A stretch of 55,401 bases of DNA from Vicinamibacterales bacterium (GTDB lineage: Bacteria > Acidobacteriota > Vicinamibacteria > Vicinamibacterales > SCN-69-37), in contig DASTCC010000256.1 of the NCBI GenBank assembly GCA_035711465.1, positions 1-55,401 on the forward strand, written 5' to 3'. Below are positions 1 through 26,739 of the stretch, in pieces. How positions within the stretch are numbered: the stretch's first letter is position 1; every line of letters begins with the position of its first letter. The notes beneath the pieces were generated by a model. It was not told the DNA's origin. It worked only from the letters and a program-made list of their open reading frames with translations, and searched no databases. The translations under genes and the position numbers were made by a program.

Positions 1-677
1 GAGACGCCGAACACCTCCGCGCCTTCGACGAACGTCACGCCGGCGGCGGTCGCCTCGCGGGCCAGCGCTTTCACCGCGCGATACGGTTCGCAATGGGCAT
101 CGTCAGGAAAGAAGTAGCCGCCGACCTGCGCGCCGACGATCGCCGGCTCGCGCTCTCGGACGTCGTCGGCCGACCAGCGCTCGGCGCGGACGCCGTGACG
201 GACGACGAGATCGATCGAGCCGTTGGCGCCCTCGAACGACGCGGGGTTTTCGTAGACCGCGAGCAGTCCGTGCCGCTCGAAGCCGAACGGATCTGGCGAG
301 CGCGCGGCGAACGCTTCCCAGAGATCGACGCTGGCGCGGCAGAGCGTGACCAGCGCCTCCGCGCCGCGCTCGAACTTCGCTCGTCGCGACGCGAGCAGGA
401 AGCCGGCGAGCCAGCGCAGGTAGGAAGGATCGACGCGCGGCTGGACGTAGAGCGGACTCTCCGGATCGAGCATCCAGCGGAACGACTTGAACAGCATGTT
501 CGGATTGGCGAGCGGCACCGCCTGGGACGGCGTGAGCCAGCCGGCGTTGCCGAACGAACATCCATGTCCGATACGATCGCGCTCGAGCACGGTGACGGAT
601 GCACCGCGCCGCGCCAGCTCGAGCGCGCAGGCGACGCCGACCACACCGCCGCCGATGACCGCGACGTCCGCTTTCAC
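1..677 (-). CDS. FAD-dependent oxidoreductase, D-amino-acid dehydrogenase (DadA/DAO)-like; partial, 3' end beyond left edge
   Basis: Open to position 1, so absent from the ORF track. Own translation from GTG (677..675): VKADVAVIGGGVVGVACALELARRGASVTVLERDRIGHGCSFGNAGWLTP... This shows a GxGxxG dinucleotide-binding N-terminus plus the S-x-GNAG motif typical of the DAO family. Confidence 0.8.
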   Translation of the reverse strand, partial: MKADVAVIGGGVVGVACALELARRGASVTVLERDRIGHGCSFGNAGWLTPSQAVPLANPNMLFKSFRWMLDPESPLYVQPRVDPSYLRWLAGFLLASRRAKFERGAEALVTLCRASVDLWEAFAARSPDPFGFERHGLLAVYENPASFEGANGSIDLVVRHGVRAERWSADDVREREPAIVGAQVGGYFFPDDAHCEPYRAVKALAREATAAGVTFVEGAEVFGV

Positions 678-685
678 AACAGACC

Positions 686-1267
686 ATGATACGTAATGTA
701 AGACCCGTCCCGGATATGCATCCCCAGACACATGAGCTTCTGACCTACCTCGACGACTGCCGCAAGCGGCTGCGCGACGTCGTCGAGGCCGTTCCGGAGG
801 GGGACCGATCGCGGCGGCCGGCGGAAGGGCGCTGGTCGGTGGTCGAGATCCTCACGCACCTCGGCATCGTGGAGCGACGCGTCGCGACGCTGGTCAAGCG
901 CATGACCGATGGCGTACGACGGGGCGAGCCGGCAACCGCGGCGCCGTTCGAGCCGAGCGTGGCGATCGCAGCGATCGAGGGGCATGGCGCGCTCGATCGC
1001 TCGAGGAAGATCGTCGCGCCCGACGCCGCCATGCCGAAAGACGAGCTGACACTCGACGCGGCGTGGCAGTCGCTGGCAGCCTCGCGCGCGGCGATGCGCG
1101 ACGCGGTGCTGGCCGGCGACGGTCTCCCGCTGGCCGGCGCGACCACCCCGCACCCGGCCTTCGGCCCACTCAACACCTACGAATGGATCGCCTTCGTCGG
1201 CGGCCACGACCTGAGGCACGCGGACCAGATTCGCGAGACAGCGGAGCAGCTGAAAACAAGGAACTGA
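686..1267 (+). CDS. DinB-family (DinB_2) metal-binding four-helix-bundle protein
   Basis: ORF 686..1267. Conserved His pattern (WSVVEILTHL ... GGHDLRHADQI) typical of DinB/YfiT-like proteins. In-frame ATG at 716 is an equally plausible start, because the divergent gene starts at 677. Confidence 0.75.
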   Translation: MIRNVRPVPDMHPQTHELLTYLDDCRKRLRDVVEAVPEGDRSRRPAEGRWSVVEILTHLGIVERRVATLVKRMTDGVRRGEPATAAPFEPSVAIAAIEGHGALDRSRKIVAPDAAMPKDELTLDAAWQSLAASRAAMRDAVLAGDGLPLAGATTPHPAFGPLNTYEWIAFVGGHDLRHADQIRETAEQLKTRN

Positions 1268-1358: not shown

Positions 1359-1403
1359 GGGGAGCACTTACGCGCCGCAAATTGCGGCGCGTAAGTGCTC
1401 CCC
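1359..1403 (+). terminator. Perfect 20-bp-stem hairpin downstream of the DinB gene
   Basis: GGGGAGCACTTACGCGCCGC-AAATT-GCGGCGCGTAAGTGCTCCCC followed by CTCTGTTT. A shorter hairpin CTGCAGCC-GACA-GGCTGCAG lies at 1275..1294. Confidence 0.6.
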
Positions 1404-1409
1404 CTCTGT

Positions 1410-1438
1410 TTGACTCCCCCCGACCGCGGGCCTATCAT
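1410..1438 (+). promoter_or_regulatory. Candidate sigma70-type promoter for the aminotransferase pair
   Basis: TTGACT (1410..1415), 17-nt spacer, TATCAT (1433..1438). About 90-nt leader before ATG 1536, which has a GGGAGG SD 6 nt upstream. Confidence 0.35.
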
Positions 1439-1535: not shown

Positions 1536-2753
1536 ATGTCGGTTTCACGACGCGGGTTCGTTCGCACTCTGACGGGCTATCCGCGGACCCCCTCGGCCAT
1601 GGCGTTGATGATCGGCGCGCGCGGCCGCGAAGACTGGGCCGCCGCCGAGCTCACGGAATTCGACGCGCAGCAGTCGGGCGCCACCCAGGCCGGACGCCGC
1701 GGCCGCGGCAATCGTCCGGAAGCGCCGCCCAACTCGATTCGACTGAGCAGCAACGAGAATCCGCTCGGTCCCAGCCAGGCCGCGCTCGCCGCCGCCGAGA
1801 AGGCGTTTCAGTTCGCCGGGCGGTATCCGATGAACGCGCAGCCGGCGATGAACGACTTCCGCGCGCTCGTCGCGAAGAAGAACGGCCTTCAGAACGATCA
1901 GGTCGCGCTCGGATCGGGCTCGGGCGAGATCCTCGACGGCGCGGTCCGTGCGTTCACGTCGGCCGAAAAGGGCCTGGTCACCGGTCTGCCGAGTTACGAA
2001 GATCCAGCCGGCAAAGCCAAACAGTTGAAGTCGGGCCTCAAGGAGATTCCGGTCGACGCCGCCGGCAAGCTCGACATCGAGAAGATGATCGCCGCTTCGA
2101 CCGGCGCCGGTCTGGTGTTCCTCTGCAATCCCAACAACCCGACGGCGACGGCGCACGGCAGCCAGGTGATCTCCGACGCGGTCGCGCGCATCACCAAGGC
2201 GTCGCCGGACACGGTCATTCTGATCGACGAGGCGTACCACGACTACGTCACCGATCCGTCCTACGCCACCGCGGTGCCGCTGATCGCGCAGTACAAGAAC
2301 GTCCTCGTCGCACGGACGATGTCCAAGGCGCACGGCATGGCGGGCCTGCGCCTCGGCTACGTGATGGGGCAGGCCGAGGTCGTCGCCCGCCTCGACAACT
2401 GGCTGATGCCCTACAACGTCAACGCGATGGCCGTCGGCGCGGCGACGGTCTCGCTCGCCGACGACGCGCAGCTCGCGCGCGAGAAAGCGCGCAACACCGA
2501 AGCGAAGAAGTTCACGGTCGACTTCTTCAAGTCGGCCGGCTACGAAGCCACCGACTCGCAGACCAACTTCATCTTCGTCAAGCTCGGCAAGCCGGCGAAG
2601 GATTTCCGCGACGCGTGCACGGTCAAGGGCATTCTCGTCGGCCGGGACTTCCCGCCGATGGAGAAGACCCACTGCCGAATCTCGATCGGGACGATGGAAG
2701 AGATGCAGAAGGCCGTGGACGTGTTCAAGTCGGTGCTCGGCGCCAAGGCGTAA
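1536..2753 (+). CDS. HisC-family class I/II PLP aminotransferase with twin-arginine N-terminus
   Basis: ORF 405 aa. N-terminus MSVSRRGFVRTL (S-R-R-x-F motif). Also NENPLGP, LCNPNNPT, IDEAYHDY and the PLP-lysine motif TMSKAHGMAGLRLGY, as in histidinol-phosphate aminotransferases. Confidence 0.85.
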   Translation: MSVSRRGFVRTLTGYPRTPSAMALMIGARGREDWAAAELTEFDAQQSGATQAGRRGRGNRPEAPPNSIRLSSNENPLGPSQAALAAAEKAFQFAGRYPMNAQPAMNDFRALVAKKNGLQNDQVALGSGSGEILDGAVRAFTSAEKGLVTGLPSYEDPAGKAKQLKSGLKEIPVDAAGKLDIEKMIAASTGAGLVFLCNPNNPTATAHGSQVISDAVARITKASPDTVILIDEAYHDYVTDPSYATAVPLIAQYKNVLVARTMSKAHGMAGLRLGYVMGQAEVVARLDNWLMPYNVNAMAVGAATVSLADDAQLAREKARNTEAKKFTVDFFKSAGYEATDSQTNFIFVKLGKPAKDFRDACTVKGILVGRDFPPMEKTHCRISIGTMEEMQKAVDVFKSVLGAKA

Positions 2754-2798
2754 GCCCGGCTGCCAACGTCAACTTCTTCTCACTGAGACGAGGTCATC

Positions 2799-3986
2799 AT
2801 GTCAGTTTCGAGACGGGCATTCATGGCGGCGGGCATCGGCGCCGGAGCAGTCGGCGCCGGCTATTACCTCACGGGCGGCAGGATCCTCGGCCCGTGGACC
2901 CGCGACGCCGGCGAGAAGGTCGCCGGTGCAGCACCGACGCGGCGTCTGCTGCTGCACAACAACGAGAACCCCCTCGGGCCGGGTGACAAGGCGATCGCGG
3001 CGATGAGAGCGAAGTTCACCGAGCGGGGCATCCCGCTCGCGCGCTACGGCTTCAGGTCGGGCGAGGTCGCCGAACCGCTGGCGGCCAAGTTCAGCTGCAA
3101 GACCGAGAACGTCATGCTCGGCTGCGGCTCGACGCAGATCCTGCGCAGCGCGACCCACGCGTTCACGACGAAGGACGCGGCGCTGATCACCGGCACGCCG
3201 AGCTACGAAGAGTGCCCGGACATGGCCAAGGTCGTCGGCTCGAAGATGGTCACGGTGCCGCTCACCGGATCGGCGCATCTCGACCTCGACGCGATGGCCG
3301 CGGCCTCCGCCGGCGCCGGTCTCGTGTTCCTCTGCAATCCCAACAACCCGACCGCCACGGTGCACGGCGCCAAGACGGTGCAGGACTTCGTCGAGAAAGT
3401 GCTGAAGGCGTCGCCGAAGACCGTGATCGCCATCGACGAGGCGTATCACGACTACGTCACCGACCCGAGCTACGCGACGCAGATCCCGCTCGCGCTCGAG
3501 AACCCGCAGGTCATCGTCGCCCGCACCTTCTCGAAGGCCTACGGCATGGCCGGTCTGCGGCTCGGCTACGCCATCGGCAGGAAGGAGACGCTCGACAAGA
3601 TGCGCGCCGTCCAGTTCGGCATGACGCTGAACGTGCTCGCGCTTGCCGCCGCGGTCGCGTCGATCCCGGACACGGCGCGTCTCGAAGAGGAGAGCCGCCG
3701 CAACACCGAGGCGCGCCAGTTCACCATGGACTGGTTCAAGCGCTCGGGCTATTCGATGACCGATTCGCAGTGCAACTTCATCTTCGTGAACATCGGCCGT
3801 CCGGCGAAGGAATTCCGCGACGGCTGCCGCGAGCACGGCGTGCTCGTCGGCCGCGACTTCCCGCCGTTCGAGAAGACCCACACGCGCATCTCGATCGGCA
3901 CGATGGAAGAGATGAAGGAAGCCGTGCAGGTCTTCGGGCAGGTCCTCGCCGTGACCAACGCGGCGTCGACGGGCACCGCGGCCTGA
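2799..3986 (+). CDS. HisC-family class I/II PLP aminotransferase with canonical Tat-type signal (paralog of 1536..2753)
   Basis: ORF 395 aa. MSVSRRAFMAAGIGAGAVGAGYYL = SRRxF plus a hydrophobic h-region. Same conserved blocks (NENPLGP, LCNPNNPTAT, IDEAYHDYVTDPSYAT, TFSKAYGMAGLRLGY, HTRISIGTMEEM). Confidence 0.85.
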   Translation: MSVSRRAFMAAGIGAGAVGAGYYLTGGRILGPWTRDAGEKVAGAAPTRRLLLHNNENPLGPGDKAIAAMRAKFTERGIPLARYGFRSGEVAEPLAAKFSCKTENVMLGCGSTQILRSATHAFTTKDAALITGTPSYEECPDMAKVVGSKMVTVPLTGSAHLDLDAMAAASAGAGLVFLCNPNNPTATVHGAKTVQDFVEKVLKASPKTVIAIDEAYHDYVTDPSYATQIPLALENPQVIVARTFSKAYGMAGLRLGYAIGRKETLDKMRAVQFGMTLNVLALAAAVASIPDTARLEEESRRNTEARQFTMDWFKRSGYSMTDSQCNFIFVNIGRPAKEFRDGCREHGVLVGRDFPPFEKTHTRISIGTMEEMKEAVQVFGQVLAVTNAASTGTAA

Positions 3987-3993
3987 TGCCGGA

Positions 3994-5346
<1,353 letters not shown>

Positions 5347-5445: not shown

Positions 5446-6663
5446 ATGACACGGAGCCGGAGTCTCTCGACCGCCGCTGGCGCGCTCGCGCTTGCGGCCG
5501 CGGTCGCCGGTCAGGGCTGGTGGCACGGCGCGCTCGACGCGCAGACGGCGGCGCCGACCTATCAGGTCGATCCGCTGTGGCCCAAGCCGCTGCCCAATCA
5601 CTGGATTCTCGGATCGGTGACGGGCGTCGCGGTCGACGCGCGCAACCACGTCTGGGTCGTGCACCGCGGCCAGGCCTCGCTCAACGCGCGCACGGAAGCG
5701 GCGCTCAATGCGAATCCGCCGGGCGCCGAGCACTGCTGCGCCGCCGCGCCGCCGATTCTCGAGTTCGATCAGGCCGGCACGCTGGTCGGCCACTGGGGCG
5801 GGCCCGGCACCGGCTTCGACTGGCCGCAGACGCCGGGCGGCATCGCCGTCGATCGCGACGGCAACATCTGGATTGCCGCGGCCGGTAACGATCCCGCGCC
5901 GGCGGGACGGGGCGGACGCGGTGGACGCGGCGGTGGCCGCGGCGGCGGTGAGGCGGCGGCTCCGCCACCGGCCGATGCGCAGGTGCTGCGCTTCTCGCGG
6001 GGCGGCCAGTTCCAGATGCAGATCGGCAAGGCCGGCCAGGTCGGCAACGCCACGAGCGAGACGTCGCTCAACCGTCCCGCCGACGTCGCCGTCGATTCGG
6101 CCGCCGGCGAGGTCTACGTTGCTGACGGCATGGCCGGACGCCGCGTCGTCGTCTTCGATGCGAAGACCGGCGCGTTCAAGCGCGCGTGGGGCGCCTACGG
6201 CAAGCCGGCCGACGACACCGCGCAGATCGCGCCCTACGATCCGGCCGAGACCGCGCCGCAGCAGTTCCGCGGCGTCAACTGCGTCGCCGTCTCGAACGAC
6301 GGCCAGGTCTACGTCTGCGATCGCGCCAGCAATCGCATCCAGGTCTTCAAGAAGGACGGCACGTTCGTCAAGGAGATGGTGATCTCGAAGACGACGCGCG
6401 GCCGGGGCGCGGTGTGGGACATCGCGTTCTCGAACGACCCGCAGCAGCAGTTCCTGTTCGTCGCCAACGGCCAGGAGCAGAAGGTGCACATCCTGCGGCG
6501 CGACTCGCTCGAGGTGGTGAGCAGCTTTGGCGCCGGCGGCCGCTGGCCGGGGACGTTCACTGCGGTGGGCAGCGTCGCCGTCGACTCGCAGGGCAACGTC
6601 TACACGGGTGAAACCCTGGAAGGGAAGCGCGTGCAGAAATTCGTGAGAGGCGGTGCGCGATGA
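5446..6663 (+). CDS. Secreted NHL-repeat six-bladed beta-propeller, peptidyl-alpha-hydroxyglycine alpha-amidating lyase (PAL)-like, with RGG-rich insert
   Basis: Signal peptide MTRSRSLSTAAGALALAAAVA. NHL-type blades (VAVSNDGQVYVCDRASNRIQVFKKDGTF; VAVDSQGNVYTGE). Low-complexity insert GRGGRGGRGGGRGGGEAAAPPP. Confidence 0.7.
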   Translation: MTRSRSLSTAAGALALAAAVAGQGWWHGALDAQTAAPTYQVDPLWPKPLPNHWILGSVTGVAVDARNHVWVVHRGQASLNARTEAALNANPPGAEHCCAAAPPILEFDQAGTLVGHWGGPGTGFDWPQTPGGIAVDRDGNIWIAAAGNDPAPAGRGGRGGRGGGRGGGEAAAPPPADAQVLRFSRGGQFQMQIGKAGQVGNATSETSLNRPADVAVDSAAGEVYVADGMAGRRVVVFDAKTGAFKRAWGAYGKPADDTAQIAPYDPAETAPQQFRGVNCVAVSNDGQVYVCDRASNRIQVFKKDGTFVKEMVISKTTRGRGAVWDIAFSNDPQQQFLFVANGQEQKVHILRRDSLEVVSSFGAGGRWPGTFTAVGSVAVDSQGNVYTGETLEGKRVQKFVRGGAR

Positions 6664-7862
6664 CGAGCGGAGGCACCATGACGCGATCGCGCAACTTCAT
6701 CATCGGATTCGGTTTTGTCGCCGCGTTCGTCGCGCTCGGCATCGTCGAGCGCGGCCTCGCTCGCCGCGCCGAGCAGCAGAACGCGCAGCTGGTCGAGGCG
6801 CCGAGGTTCGAGGTCGATCCCGCGTTCCCGAAACCGCTGCCCAACGGCTGGCTGATCGGCATGACCATCGGCATCGGCATCGATGCCGAGGATCACATCT
6901 GGATCGTCCATCGCCCCGACACGCTGTCGGCCGACGAGACCGCGGCGTCGCAGAATCCGCCGACGGCGGCCTGCTGCAAGGCGGCGCCGCCGGTGCTCGA
7001 GTTCGATCAGCAGGGGAACCTGATCGGATCGTGGGGCGGACCGGGCGAGGGATACGACTGGCCCGAGTCGAACCACGGCATCTTCGTCGATCACAAAGGC
7101 ATCGTCTGGATCGGGGGCAACGGCACCAAGGACGCGCACGTCCTCAAGTTCACGCAGCAGGGCAAGTTCATCGCGCAGTTCGGCAAGATGGGCCAGAACC
7201 AGGGCAGCAACGACACCGCCAACTTCGGACGCGTCGCGAAGATCATCGTCGACCCGCGCGCCAACGAGGCGTATCTCGCCGACGGCTATCTCAACAAGCG
7301 CGTCGCCGTCATCGACGCCGACACCGGCGCCTTCAAGCGCTACTGGGGCGCCTACGGCAACAAGCCGGACGACACCAACCTCGGCCCCTACGACCCGACC
7401 GCGCCGCCGGCGCAGCAGTTCCGCAATCCGGTGCACTGCTCGGATCTGTCGGTGGACGACCTCGTCTACGTCTGCGATCGCCCGAACGACCGGATTCAGG
7501 TGTTCACGAAGGAAGGCAAGTTCGTGAAGGAGAAGTTCATCGCCACCAAGACGCTCGGCGATGGCTCCACCTGGGACGTCGCCTTCTCGCGCGACCCGCA
7601 GCAGAAGTACATGTACGTGGCGGACGGCAAGAACGAGCGCATCTACGTCCTCGACCGCCAATCGCTCGAGATCCTCACCGAGTTCGGCGACGGCGGCCGT
7701 CAGCCGGGCCAGTTCTTCGCGGTGCACAGCATCGCCACCGACTCGCGCGGCAACCTGTTCACCACCGAAACCTACGAAGGCCGCCGCCTGCAGAAGTTCA
7801 CGTACAAGGGCATCGCCAAGGTCCCCCGAGTGCAGGGCGTGGTCTGGCCGAGCGGCAAGTAG
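6660..7862 (+). CDS. Membrane-anchored NHL-repeat beta-propeller, PAL-like (tandem paralog)
   Basis: ATGA start/stop overlap with the upstream gene (6660..6663). N-terminal TM FIIGFGFVAAFVALGIV. Collinear with the upstream paralog (FEVDPAFPKPLPNGWLIG, VYVCDRPNDRIQVFTKEGKF, IATDSRGNLFTTE) but lacks the RGG insert. Confidence 0.7.
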   Translation: MTSGGTMTRSRNFIIGFGFVAAFVALGIVERGLARRAEQQNAQLVEAPRFEVDPAFPKPLPNGWLIGMTIGIGIDAEDHIWIVHRPDTLSADETAASQNPPTAACCKAAPPVLEFDQQGNLIGSWGGPGEGYDWPESNHGIFVDHKGIVWIGGNGTKDAHVLKFTQQGKFIAQFGKMGQNQGSNDTANFGRVAKIIVDPRANEAYLADGYLNKRVAVIDADTGAFKRYWGAYGNKPDDTNLGPYDPTAPPAQQFRNPVHCSDLSVDDLVYVCDRPNDRIQVFTKEGKFVKEKFIATKTLGDGSTWDVAFSRDPQQKYMYVADGKNERIYVLDRQSLEILTEFGDGGRQPGQFFAVHSIATDSRGNLFTTETYEGRRLQKFTYKGIAKVPRVQGVVWPSGK

Positions 7863-25125: not shown

Positions 25126-25709
25126 AGGAGCTCCTTCGTCGAGGGCAGCACGCGGAGCAGGCGTCGATCCTTCGCGCACGCGACGCGAAGCGCGCGGGCG
25201 AACGCCTTGAAGATCGCCTCGATGCCGTGATGGCTCGACCGGCCATACAGCAGCTTCAGGTGCACGTTGGCCCTGGCGCCGGTGGCGAAGCCTTCGAAGA
25301 AGTCGGCGACCAGCTCGGTGGGCAGGTCACCGACGCGTGAGGCCCGCACCGGCACGTCGATGGCGGCGTGAGGACGGCCGGCCAGGTCGATGGCGGCGAC
25401 AGCGAGTGACTCGTCCATCGGCATCACGAAGTAGCCGGCGCGGTTGATCCCGCGGCGCGTGCCGAGCGCGCGCGCGAACGCGTCGCCGAGCGCCAGCCCC
25501 GTGTCCTCGACGGTGTGATGAGCGTCGACGTCGAGGTCGCCGTCCGCGGCGATCTCGAGATCGAAGCCGCCATGACGGGCGGTCGTCTCGAGCATGTGAT
25601 CGAGAAACCGGAGGCCGGTCGCGATGTCATAGCGTCCGCGTCCTTCGACCTGCAGCCGGACGCGGACGCGCGTCTCGGCCGTGCGGCGGTCAATTCGCGC
25701 CCGCCGCAC
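25122..25709 (-). CDS. hisB: Imidazoleglycerol-phosphate dehydratase (monofunctional HisB)
   Basis: 195 aa. [50 protein letters not shown] motifs. No N-terminal histidinol-phosphatase domain. Confidence 0.9.
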
Positions 25710-26739
25710 GGATCGCCTCCAGCGCGTCGATGCAGACGCGCGTGTGCGCCACGACGCCGGCGGTGATGCGCAGACAGCCGGCGCACCCGGACGCGGCGCT
25801 CTTGTCGCGGACGAGCACGCCGCGATCGGCGAGCGCGCGCGCCAGCGCCGACGCCGTGTCGCCGACGCGAATCAGCACGAAGTTCGCTTCGCTCGGCCAG
25901 TAGGTCCACCCGCGGCGCTCGCAGTAGTCGTAGAGCAGCCGCTTCGACTCCGCAGCCGCGGCCACCGATGCGCGCAGATATGCCGTGTCCTCGAGCGCGG
26001 CAGCGAGGGCGCGCATCGCGCAGACGTTGACGCCGAAGGGTGGCAGCAGACGCCGCAGCGGCGCCAACGTCTCGGGGTGCGCGACCAGCGCGCCAATGCG
26101 CAGCGCGGCCAGCCCGTGCGCCTTCGCGAACGTCCGCCCGACGACGAGGTTGCGATGGCGATCGAGCGTGTCGCCGACGAACGTCCGGCCGCTGAACTCC
26201 GCGTAGGCTTCGTCGACCAGCACGGTCGCCTGTGGCGCCGCCTGCGCGATGTGCTCGACGATGCCTCGCGGGATCGCGAGACCCGTCGGGTTGTTCGGAT
26301 CGGTCAGATAGACCAGCCGGGTGGCGGGCCTCAACGCGTGCATCATCGCCTGCGTCGGAAACGCGAAATCCTCTTCCGGCATCAGATGCGTCGTCGCCAG
26401 GCCCGCGGCCTCGGCGCTGGCCAGGTACATCTCGAACGCCGGCTCGACGATGATCACGGGCGGCTCGACGGGCACGCGATCGATCTGCAGCCTGGCGTAA
26501 TGCGCGACGACGTGCAGGCCTTCGTCGAGGCCGTTGGTGAGTTGGACCCAGTCCGGATCGACGCCGAACGCGGCTGCCGTGGCCGCCGTGATCGGACCGT
26601 AGTCCGGATACCACGCGGCTTCCTCACGGGTGATCGATCGCAGCGCCTCGAGCACGGCCGGCGAGCAGCCGCCGGTGTGCTCGTTGAAGTGAAGGCGAAG
26701 GCCCTGGGACGCATCAGGTGGTTGATATGGCATGGGCAC
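25690..26739 (-). CDS. hisC: Histidinol-phosphate aminotransferase (HisC)
   Basis: 349 aa. [37 protein letters not shown] (PLP Lys). No signal sequence. Lies between hisD and hisB. Confidence 0.9.

Follow-up and report, generated by a model that had tools for sequence, protein, structure and literature searches.

Can two folded, cofactor-loaded aminotransferases cross the cytoplasmic membrane together via the Tat (twin-arginine translocation) pathway when only one of them carries a complete export signal? This question is raised by a locus on contig DASTCC010000256.1 of a Vicinamibacterales bacterium (Acidobacteriota; assembly GCA_035711465.1), a high-GC (~68%) bin of 606 contigs that is 83% complete. 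Within the window (i.e., the whole stretch of 55,401 nucleotides that was analysed), two neighbouring genes, hereafter A and B, were recognised as HisC-fold pyridoxal 5′-phosphate (PLP) aminotransferases from the open reading frame (ORF) list, Pfam family PF00155 and the NCBIfam models:

1536..2753, + strand: gene A, 405 amino acids (aa), HisC-fold PLP aminotransferase, upstream member of the pair
2799..3986, + strand: gene B, 395 aa, HisC-fold PLP aminotransferase, downstream member of the pair

A reading of the sequence alone had already described this tandem of intact HisC-family PLP aminotransferases, both starting with MSVSRR, and had assigned Tat signals to both. The tandem and its shared start were borne out by the two ORFs and their PF00155 matches (E-values of 1e-43 for A and 2e-44 for B), while the assigned signals turned out to be unequal: the claim stands for B but not for A, whose leader is not canonical and displays a conserved, secondary decay in the upstream partner. 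Tat-exported HisC-like transaminases as such are a known large family, and what is unusual here is an old, co-inherited pair with asymmetric signals. We consider this A–B pairing, which the sequence-only reading missed, to be the most interesting feature of the locus.

At the level of catalysis, both proteins look complete. A and B are 52% identical, and both keep the PLP-binding residues, as aligned to N157, D184, Y187, K214, R222 and the C-terminal Arg of Escherichia coli HisC. This agrees with the earlier observation that the catalytic blocks, including the PLP lysine, had been retained in both genes:

2325..2327, + strand: PLP lysine codon of A (K264, motif SKAHGMAGLRLGY), invariant in the A family and aligned with K214 of E. 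coli HisC
3534..3536, + strand: PLP lysine codon of B (K246, motif SKAYGMAGLRLGY), nearly invariant in the B family and likewise aligned with HisC K214

AlphaFold2 (AF2) monomer models displayed a core with a predicted local distance difference test (pLDDT) score above 90 from about residue 61 onwards in A and from about residue 48 onwards in B. In the substrate pocket, GSGSGE in A and GCGSTQ in B take the place of the HisC motif GxDE, and each of these motifs is conserved within its own family. Class I aminotransferases are obligate dimers in which each active site is built by both subunits, and since the pocket motifs differ between A and B, a dimer of the two would hold two different active sites.

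The N-termini (i.e., MSVSRRGFVRTLTGYPRTPSAMALMIGARGRED for A and MSVSRRAFMAAGIGAGAVGAGYYLTGGRILGPWTRD for B) were scored with a TATFIND-like rule that requires a twin arginine (RR) followed by at least 12–13 uncharged residues (at least 12 for the pair counts given below). The leader of B (SRRAFMAAGIGAGAVGAGYYLTGG) passed this rule, with 21 uncharged residues and a maximum Kyte–Doolittle value of 1.77 over a 12-residue window, and is thus the textbook Tat signal that had been noted in the second gene. The leader of A (SRRGFVRTLTGYPRTPSAMALMIGARG) failed, with at most 11 uncharged residues and a Kyte–Doolittle value of 0.82, and is broken by R10 and R17; the weaker hydrophobic core ascribed to the first gene behind its RR was therefore recovered as well. 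The elements of both leaders are situated as follows:

1545..1565, + strand: twin-arginine n-region of A (S4-R-R-G-F-V-R10), fitting the S-R-R-x-F-L-K consensus
1566..1616, + strand: decayed h-region of A (TLTGYPRTPSAMALMIGA), with R17 breaking the stretch and a longest uncharged run of 11 residues
1617..1637, + strand: A-R-G-x-E-x-W motif of the A family (A28–W34), with G30 and E32 invariant and A28, R29 and A33 at least 90% conserved
2799..2873, + strand: canonical Tat signal of B (MSVSRRAFMAAGIGAGAVGAGYYLT), with RR at residues 5–6 followed by the 21 uncharged residues
2874..2903, + strand: conserved GGRxxGPWTR segment of B, directly 3′ of the h-region, conserved in the close B clade and of low pLDDT in the monomer model

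Compared with the S/T-R-R-x-F-L-K consensus of the n-region, A reads SRRGFVR and B reads SRRAFMA, and this part of the leader is conserved in both families. In the B family the RR is invariant, and 113 of 120 close B homologues carry a canonical leader (RR plus h-region), followed by the conserved GGRxxGPWTR segment. Among 120 A homologues, SRRxF was kept in 106, the short tract behind it often holds R, D, E, H or K, and the leader tract ends at an invariant ARG(R/H)EAW. Across 121 A-family sequences, S4, R5 and R6 each reach a conservation of 90% or more, at a mean column identity of 52% and an overall identity of about 60%. With an RR that never varies in the B family and that shows 90% conservation or more in the A family, the RR motifs of A and B are not a product of chance. 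Moreover, the persistence of the RR of A despite the low overall identity of its family argues that this motif is under selection and has remained in use, possibly by making a second TatBC contact.

Further into A, the ARGxEAW motif is joined to the folded core by a low-complexity linker rich in Arg and Gly (AGRRGRGNRPE; residues ~51–61, window 1686–1718), and a comparable RG-rich tract (e.g., GRGRGRGRGQG) occurs at the same variable spot in 10 of 112 A-family members. The AF2 monomers were also considered as a test of whether the ARGxEAW and GGRxxGPWTR segments pack onto the core, and proved uninformative in this respect, both N-termini being modelled with low confidence.

Both annotated starts are preceded by a Shine-Dalgarno sequence (GGGAGG for A and GAGG for B) located 6–9 nt ahead of the ATG. 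The start of B lies 45 nt past the stop of A and shares its reading frame. The start-to-start distance amounts to 1263 nt, or 421 codons, and the stretch between the two genes reads as TAA, ten sense codons, TGA and four sense codons. In the relatives L012, L016–L019, L021 and L022, in-frame E-E-D or K-E-D codons precede the ATG, and do so upstream of both genes. These residues correspond to a translated purine-rich Shine-Dalgarno sequence (GAGGAGGA), which argues that MS(L/V)SRR is the true N-terminus of both partners.

The asymmetry between the two leaders is not confined to the window. Members of the family were found in 69 of 101 genomes of the order, with adjacent pairs in many and up to 10 copies in some, and an A-like and a B-like gene were adjacent on every long contig examined. 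From the Vicinamibacterales, 24 tandem A–B pairs were extracted. In all 24, the downstream gene encodes a canonical Tat leader, whereas the upstream gene has the RR in 23 but reaches the minimum of 12 uncharged residues in only 6. Upstream proteins have a median uncharged run of 9 residues and a median of 3 charged residues in the h-region window; for the downstream proteins, these medians are 17 and 0, respectively. The A–B intergenic gaps range from –7 to 131 nt and measure at most 54 nt in 20 of the 24 pairs. In the tree, the downstream genes form a single clade (support of 95 in the Shimodaira–Hasegawa-like approximate likelihood ratio test, SH-aLRT) with the upstream genes outside of it, and the sub-topologies of both sets mirror each other. 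This single downstream clade and the mirrored sub-topologies indicate that one old duplication was followed by co-diversification of A and B. As for copy number, some genomes of the order, G069, G023 and G057 among them, hold 8–10 copies of this Tat-type aminotransferase family; in G069, three identical-scoring copies reside on different contigs, which suggests a recent duplication or a repeated element.

Three proteins (P0241, P0245 and P0290) group with the upstream genes in the tree but possess a canonical h-region, with the ARGRE motif of A behind it. Their canonical h-regions show that the h-region of A decayed secondarily, and the pairs display this decay in the upstream member only. One sub-clade even encodes upstream proteins with no leader at all, and such leaderless A homologues start just ahead of the A-R-G-x-E-x-W motif. 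The leaderless state was confirmed in L008 and L051 by an in-frame stop a few codons 5′ of the start (M..(F/V)(L/F)(S/A)ARGHEAW); the B gene that follows has a canonical signal and lies at most 9 nt away in L051, while overlapping the A stop codon in L008. A third locus (P0224) has the same layout. The complete absence of the leader of A from this sub-clade shows that the RR n-region of A is dispensable.

With regard to family placement, the PRK09105 model (NF006580) scored highest among the NCBIfam models (278.9 bits for A and 273.1 for B), ahead of the PtaA model (NF051461; 261.1 and 238.8 bits) and hisC (237 and 223 bits). When aligned to B, the PRK09105 and PtaA models begin at residue 2 and thus cover the leader; when aligned to A, they begin only at residue 54–59 and leave the N-terminus uncovered. 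Neither protein reaches the curated cut-offs of these models (500 bits for the PtaA equivalog and 444 bits for PRK09105), so A and B are best regarded as unclassified relatives, and not as PtaA orthologues. PRK09105 was also the top model for five diverse Tat-bearing relatives that were scanned. Foldseek returned PDB entry 3ly1 as the top match of B (E = 4e-34), and this entry is also the best PDB match in sequence. An exhaustive profile search yielded 1085 clusters (at 50% identity) with E < 1e-30, and among the best 150 matches, i.e., those closest to B, 80 of the 105 full-length representatives showed an RR with a run of 12 or more uncharged residues behind it. As for whether Tat-bearing members form a group of their own, the tree placed these HisC-like proteins together, as a large radiation far from the housekeeping HisC of the his operon. 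The latter gene, which the sequence-only reading had pointed out as a separate hisC without a leader, was indeed found:

25690..26739, – strand: housekeeping hisC, in a hisD-C-B-H operon, no leader, outside the A–B system; best NCBIfam model TIGR01141 hisC

The operon HisC is 27–31% identical to A and B, and scored 227.6 bits with TIGR01141 and 141 bits with PRK09105. The cut-off of TIGR01141 (276.55 bits) is missed by A and B and also by this genuine HisC, which means that it does not discriminate in this lineage; it was therefore dropped as a test of HisC membership, and the rank order of the models was used instead. A, B and the operon hisC are the only strong HisC-like matches (E < 1e-20) in the genome, and contig C14 holds one weak HisC-like match of 118 residues (E = 4e-6).

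Taken as a linked, co-inherited pair of which only one member has a full signal, A and B resemble what Tat hitchhiking predicts, and export as a heterodimer is proposed on this ground. The hallmark of a hitchhiker (i.e., a signal-less subunit beside a co-inherited, signal-bearing one) was found in the analysis of the 24 tandem pairs, with congruent trees for upstream and downstream genes and with fully leaderless A partners in L008 and L051. We see about an even chance that A and B are PtaA-like PLP transaminases that form a PLP-loaded heterodimer in the cytoplasm and are exported on the signal of B. What the present data show is the fold, the catalytic residues, the signal asymmetry, the inheritance of A with B, and a leader of A that was secondarily decayed or lost. 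Given the complete and family-wide conserved Tat signal of B, periplasmic transamination is the sensible reading for this partner. In the proposed order of events, A and B would each fold and bind PLP in the cytoplasm and would then assemble into a heterodimer, which the Tat translocase would carry across the membrane on the signal of B, with A hitchhiking. The RR motif retained by A may offer a second contact with the TatBC receptor. In the periplasm, the A–B pair would transaminate one or two amino compounds, and its function is possibly tied to the adjacent membrane protein and propellers:

3994..5301, – strand: HupE_UreJ_2 membrane protein with an additional N-terminal periplasmic domain, convergent with B (PF13795, E = 2e-42)
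5446..7862, + strand: two tandem NHL beta-propeller genes (5446–6663 and 6660–7862) with N-terminal hydrophobic leaders (Pfam NHL)

These neighbours match the earlier description of the pair as having envelope proteins nearby. A stricter form of the proposal, to which we would lend only tentative credence, holds that the heterodimer is obligate, and that, with the full signal of B driving translocation, the selected half-signal of A (a consensus RR n-region lacking a membrane-inserting h-region) engages TatC at a second site.

Several observations weigh against heterodimer export on the signal of B. No clear AxA cleavage site follows the h-region of B, so that B may be anchored in the membrane rather than cleaved, and the AF2 monomers are uninformative on the N-terminal 46–60 residues (pLDDT < 60). 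No natural A–B fusion was found among proteins of 450–1430 aa with a joined query of 816 aa in which stops were read as Gly; three candidates (P0390–P0392, covering 75–78% of this query) were rejected, as their out-of-frame stretches revealed them to be frameshifted assemblies of the A–B tandems of other genomes. Linkage to the HupE_UreJ_2 and NHL genes is seen in only about a third of the loci. Moreover, neither TatC nor TatA was found in the 83%-complete bin, either with hidden Markov models (HMMs) or by tblastn with the TatC of relatives; we attribute this to incompleteness, since 20 of 20 relatives have TatC, and many other canonical RR leaders are encoded in the genome of the window itself. 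Finally, the full catalytic set in both A and B would allow each to form homodimers, and the passable h-region in 6 of the 24 upstream partners would allow self-export of some A proteins. These last two points also speak for an alternative in which A and B are two independent homodimers, each exported by Tat on its own leader, with the atypical leader of A being functional and the adjacency of both genes reflecting consecutive or related periplasmic substrates. The conserved SRRxFVR of A, a perfect consensus n-region, fits this alternative as well, as does the fact that Tat h-regions are less hydrophobic than Sec h-regions. However, most A leaders have three to five charged residues (R, D, E, K) in the would-be h-region (e.g., RNLGVDRTDSLSRDF or TLAGKKKPVPS), one sub-clade has abandoned the leader of A while its B partner keeps a full one, and a decay that spares every downstream partner is not the pattern expected of two independent enzymes. 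We therefore deem independent export unlikely.

No more convincing to us is a split localisation, in which B would be periplasmic and A cytoplasmic, with both acting on the same metabolite family on either side of the membrane and the RR of A being a slowly decaying relic. It would readily explain why A fails the Tat rule, why leaderless forms of A exist, and why the alignments to the PRK09105 and PtaA models skip the N-terminus of A. Nevertheless, an unselected relic should by now be gone, which is at odds with an RR that 23 of 24 upstream partners and at least 90% of the 121 family members (only about 60% identical overall) have kept. Moreover, if A stayed in the cytoplasm, its bare RR consensus could dock on TatBC to no purpose. 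The close spacing of the two genes (gaps of –7 to 54 nt in 20 of 24 pairs) also suits a protein complex. A further explanation, i.e., that neither protein is exported and that A and B are simply cytoplasmic paralogues of HisC or of aromatic aminotransferases with a coincidental or mis-annotated MSVSRR start, could invoke the missing TatC of the bin and the annotation of the homologues as histidinol-phosphate aminotransferase by the Joint Genome Institute (JGI) and the National Center for Biotechnology Information (NCBI). We disfavour it as very improbable: a Shine-Dalgarno sequence stands ahead of the annotated ATG in the window and in many relatives (cf. the in-frame EED), the RR is invariant across the B family, the nearest characterised family (PtaA/PA2531) is exported according to experiment, the genome has a separate hisC in its his operon, and TatC is present in the relatives. 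Weighing these alternatives, we retain heterodimer export on the signal of B as the preferred reading, in which the actual export, the heterodimer itself, any role of the RR motif of A, and the substrate are inferred.

The surroundings of the pair were examined for clues to its expression and substrate:

3..731, – strand: DAO-family flavin adenine dinucleotide (FAD) oxidoreductase resembling D-amino acid dehydrogenase (PRK00711 as its best NCBIfam model, 134 bits)
1359..1403, + strand: hairpin with a 20-bp stem, 3′ of the upstream DinB-family gene and splitting this gene from the A–B unit (terminator-like scan)
1410..1438, + strand: promoter-like site TTGACT-17-TATCAT, ~100 nt 5′ of A (10 of 12 matches; 1 site versus 0.2 expected from shuffles)

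At the other end of the unit, the stop codons of B (3984–3986) and of the convergent HupE_UreJ_2 gene (3994–3996) are 7 nt apart, which leaves no space for a separate terminator. The contig ends shortly upstream of A–B, at the D-amino acid dehydrogenase-like gene. A DAO-family FAD oxidoreductase is located near the pair both in the window and in L007 (4122–5216), and might hint at D-amino acid or amine chemistry.

Across the 27 loci that were compared, no neighbour was common to all. A HupE_UreJ_2 homologue adjoins the pair in 8 loci (the window counted), an NHL homologue is near the pair in 11 of 27, and homologues of these genes flank the pair in about 9–11 of 27. The latter loci include a second A/B sub-clade from the same bacterial family with another gene arrangement. 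Other clades have an amidohydrolase-2, APC-type (amino-acid-type) permease or TauE-like neighbour instead (names read from ORF motifs), with a Pfam Amidohydro_2 match in the neighbourhood of L007, and peptidases often adjoin the pair in relatives. In two relatives, XdhC-like and NTP_transf_3 (MobA/IspD-like) proteins are encoded directly 5′ of A–B (L001 5862–6686; L009 5612–7888). The attempt to deduce the substrate from gene context failed for want of a universal partner gene, and the NHL propellers matched PAL and ScyF only weakly (PDB 3fvz at E = 3e-11; ScyF at 73 and 68 bits versus a cut-off of 350), so both assignments were rejected. Neither an ORF of the size of a non-ribosomal peptide synthetase (NRPS) nor pyoverdine genes were found in the window, where the longest ORF counts 1130 aa and the neighbours of the pair are DinB, DAO, HupE_UreJ_2 and NHL. 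The most that can be said is that the pair would process amino compounds in the periplasm, be they amino acids, peptides or others.

In a wider perspective, A–B is part of a very large and diverse radiation of uncharacterised enzymes of this kind in soil Acidobacteriota, so that periplasmic transamination may be common rather than exotic. Since public records call these genes "histidinol-phosphate aminotransferase", the present analysis also corrects a routine mis-annotation. The conserved combination of a full signal with an RR-only half-signal amounts to an experiment of nature, one that bears on the handling of dimeric cargo by the Tat receptor. If docking of the half-signal were true, the half-signal would constitute a kind of targeting element for oligomeric Tat cargo that has not been described before and is widespread in the Vicinamibacterales, and it would speak for a periplasmic amino-group metabolism in this order that is extensive and has escaped study. 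To our knowledge, PvdN and PtaA, both of Pseudomonas, are the only PLP enzymes for which Tat export has been established.

Among known systems, HisC itself has the fold and the PLP-binding residues in common with A and B. It differs in its GxDE motif, which corresponds to GSGE in A and GSTQ in B; A and B moreover lie outside the his operon and have N-terminal extensions of 46–60 residues. PRK09105 (NF006580) is the best-scoring model for both proteins, with 3ly1 as the best structure match, but 3ly1 (a putative histidinol-phosphate aminotransferase of Pectobacterium atrosepticum) is only 29% identical, and both proteins stay under the 444-bit subfamily cut-off.

The sequence-only reading had held that periplasmic transamination is rarely considered. 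This does not agree with the literature on PtaA, a HisC-like, "normal" PLP transaminase of fluorescent Pseudomonas that is exported by Tat in a folded state with its cofactor (Ringel, Draeger and Brueser 2017, as summarised in PMC6206403). Tat export by the leader of PA2531, the P. aeruginosa orthologue of PtaA, was validated by an amidase reporter (PMC6085387), PLP figures among the Tat-carried cofactors in a 2026 review (PMC13673990), and the NCBIfam models NF051461 and NF006580 exist. Homologues of PtaA in species that make no pyoverdine were noted as well, with other periplasmic pathways being suggested (PMC6206403). A and B resemble PtaA as HisC-fold PLP transaminases with an N-terminal twin arginine (in a complete signal in B, as RR only in A), and NF051461 is the second-best NCBIfam model for both. 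In contrast, PtaA acts on the glutamate side chain of pyoverdine, whereas the host of A–B is an acidobacterium whose window holds no pyoverdine or NRPS genes, and PtaA has a clear AFA cleavage site (PMC6085387), of which B has no clear counterpart. PtaA is, furthermore, not described as the member of a pair in PMC6206403 or PMC6085387 (the PtaA locus itself was not examined), while A–B is a conserved pair with one decayed leader.

Known passengers of Tat hitchhiker complexes are subunits that are not known to be related to their carrier or to have an RR motif. The putative passenger A differs from these in being a paralogue of its carrier B and in keeping a conserved RR n-region without an h-region, and its complex with B is a proposed one. 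Such hitchhiker complexes comprise HybO/HybC of hydrogenase-2, DmsA/DmsB and PaoABC (Rodrigue et al. 1999 as cited in PMC13673990; PMC4273604). The likeness to A–B resides in a subunit without a working signal that stands beside a signal-bearing partner, and that would cross the membrane with it in a pre-assembled, cofactor-loaded complex.

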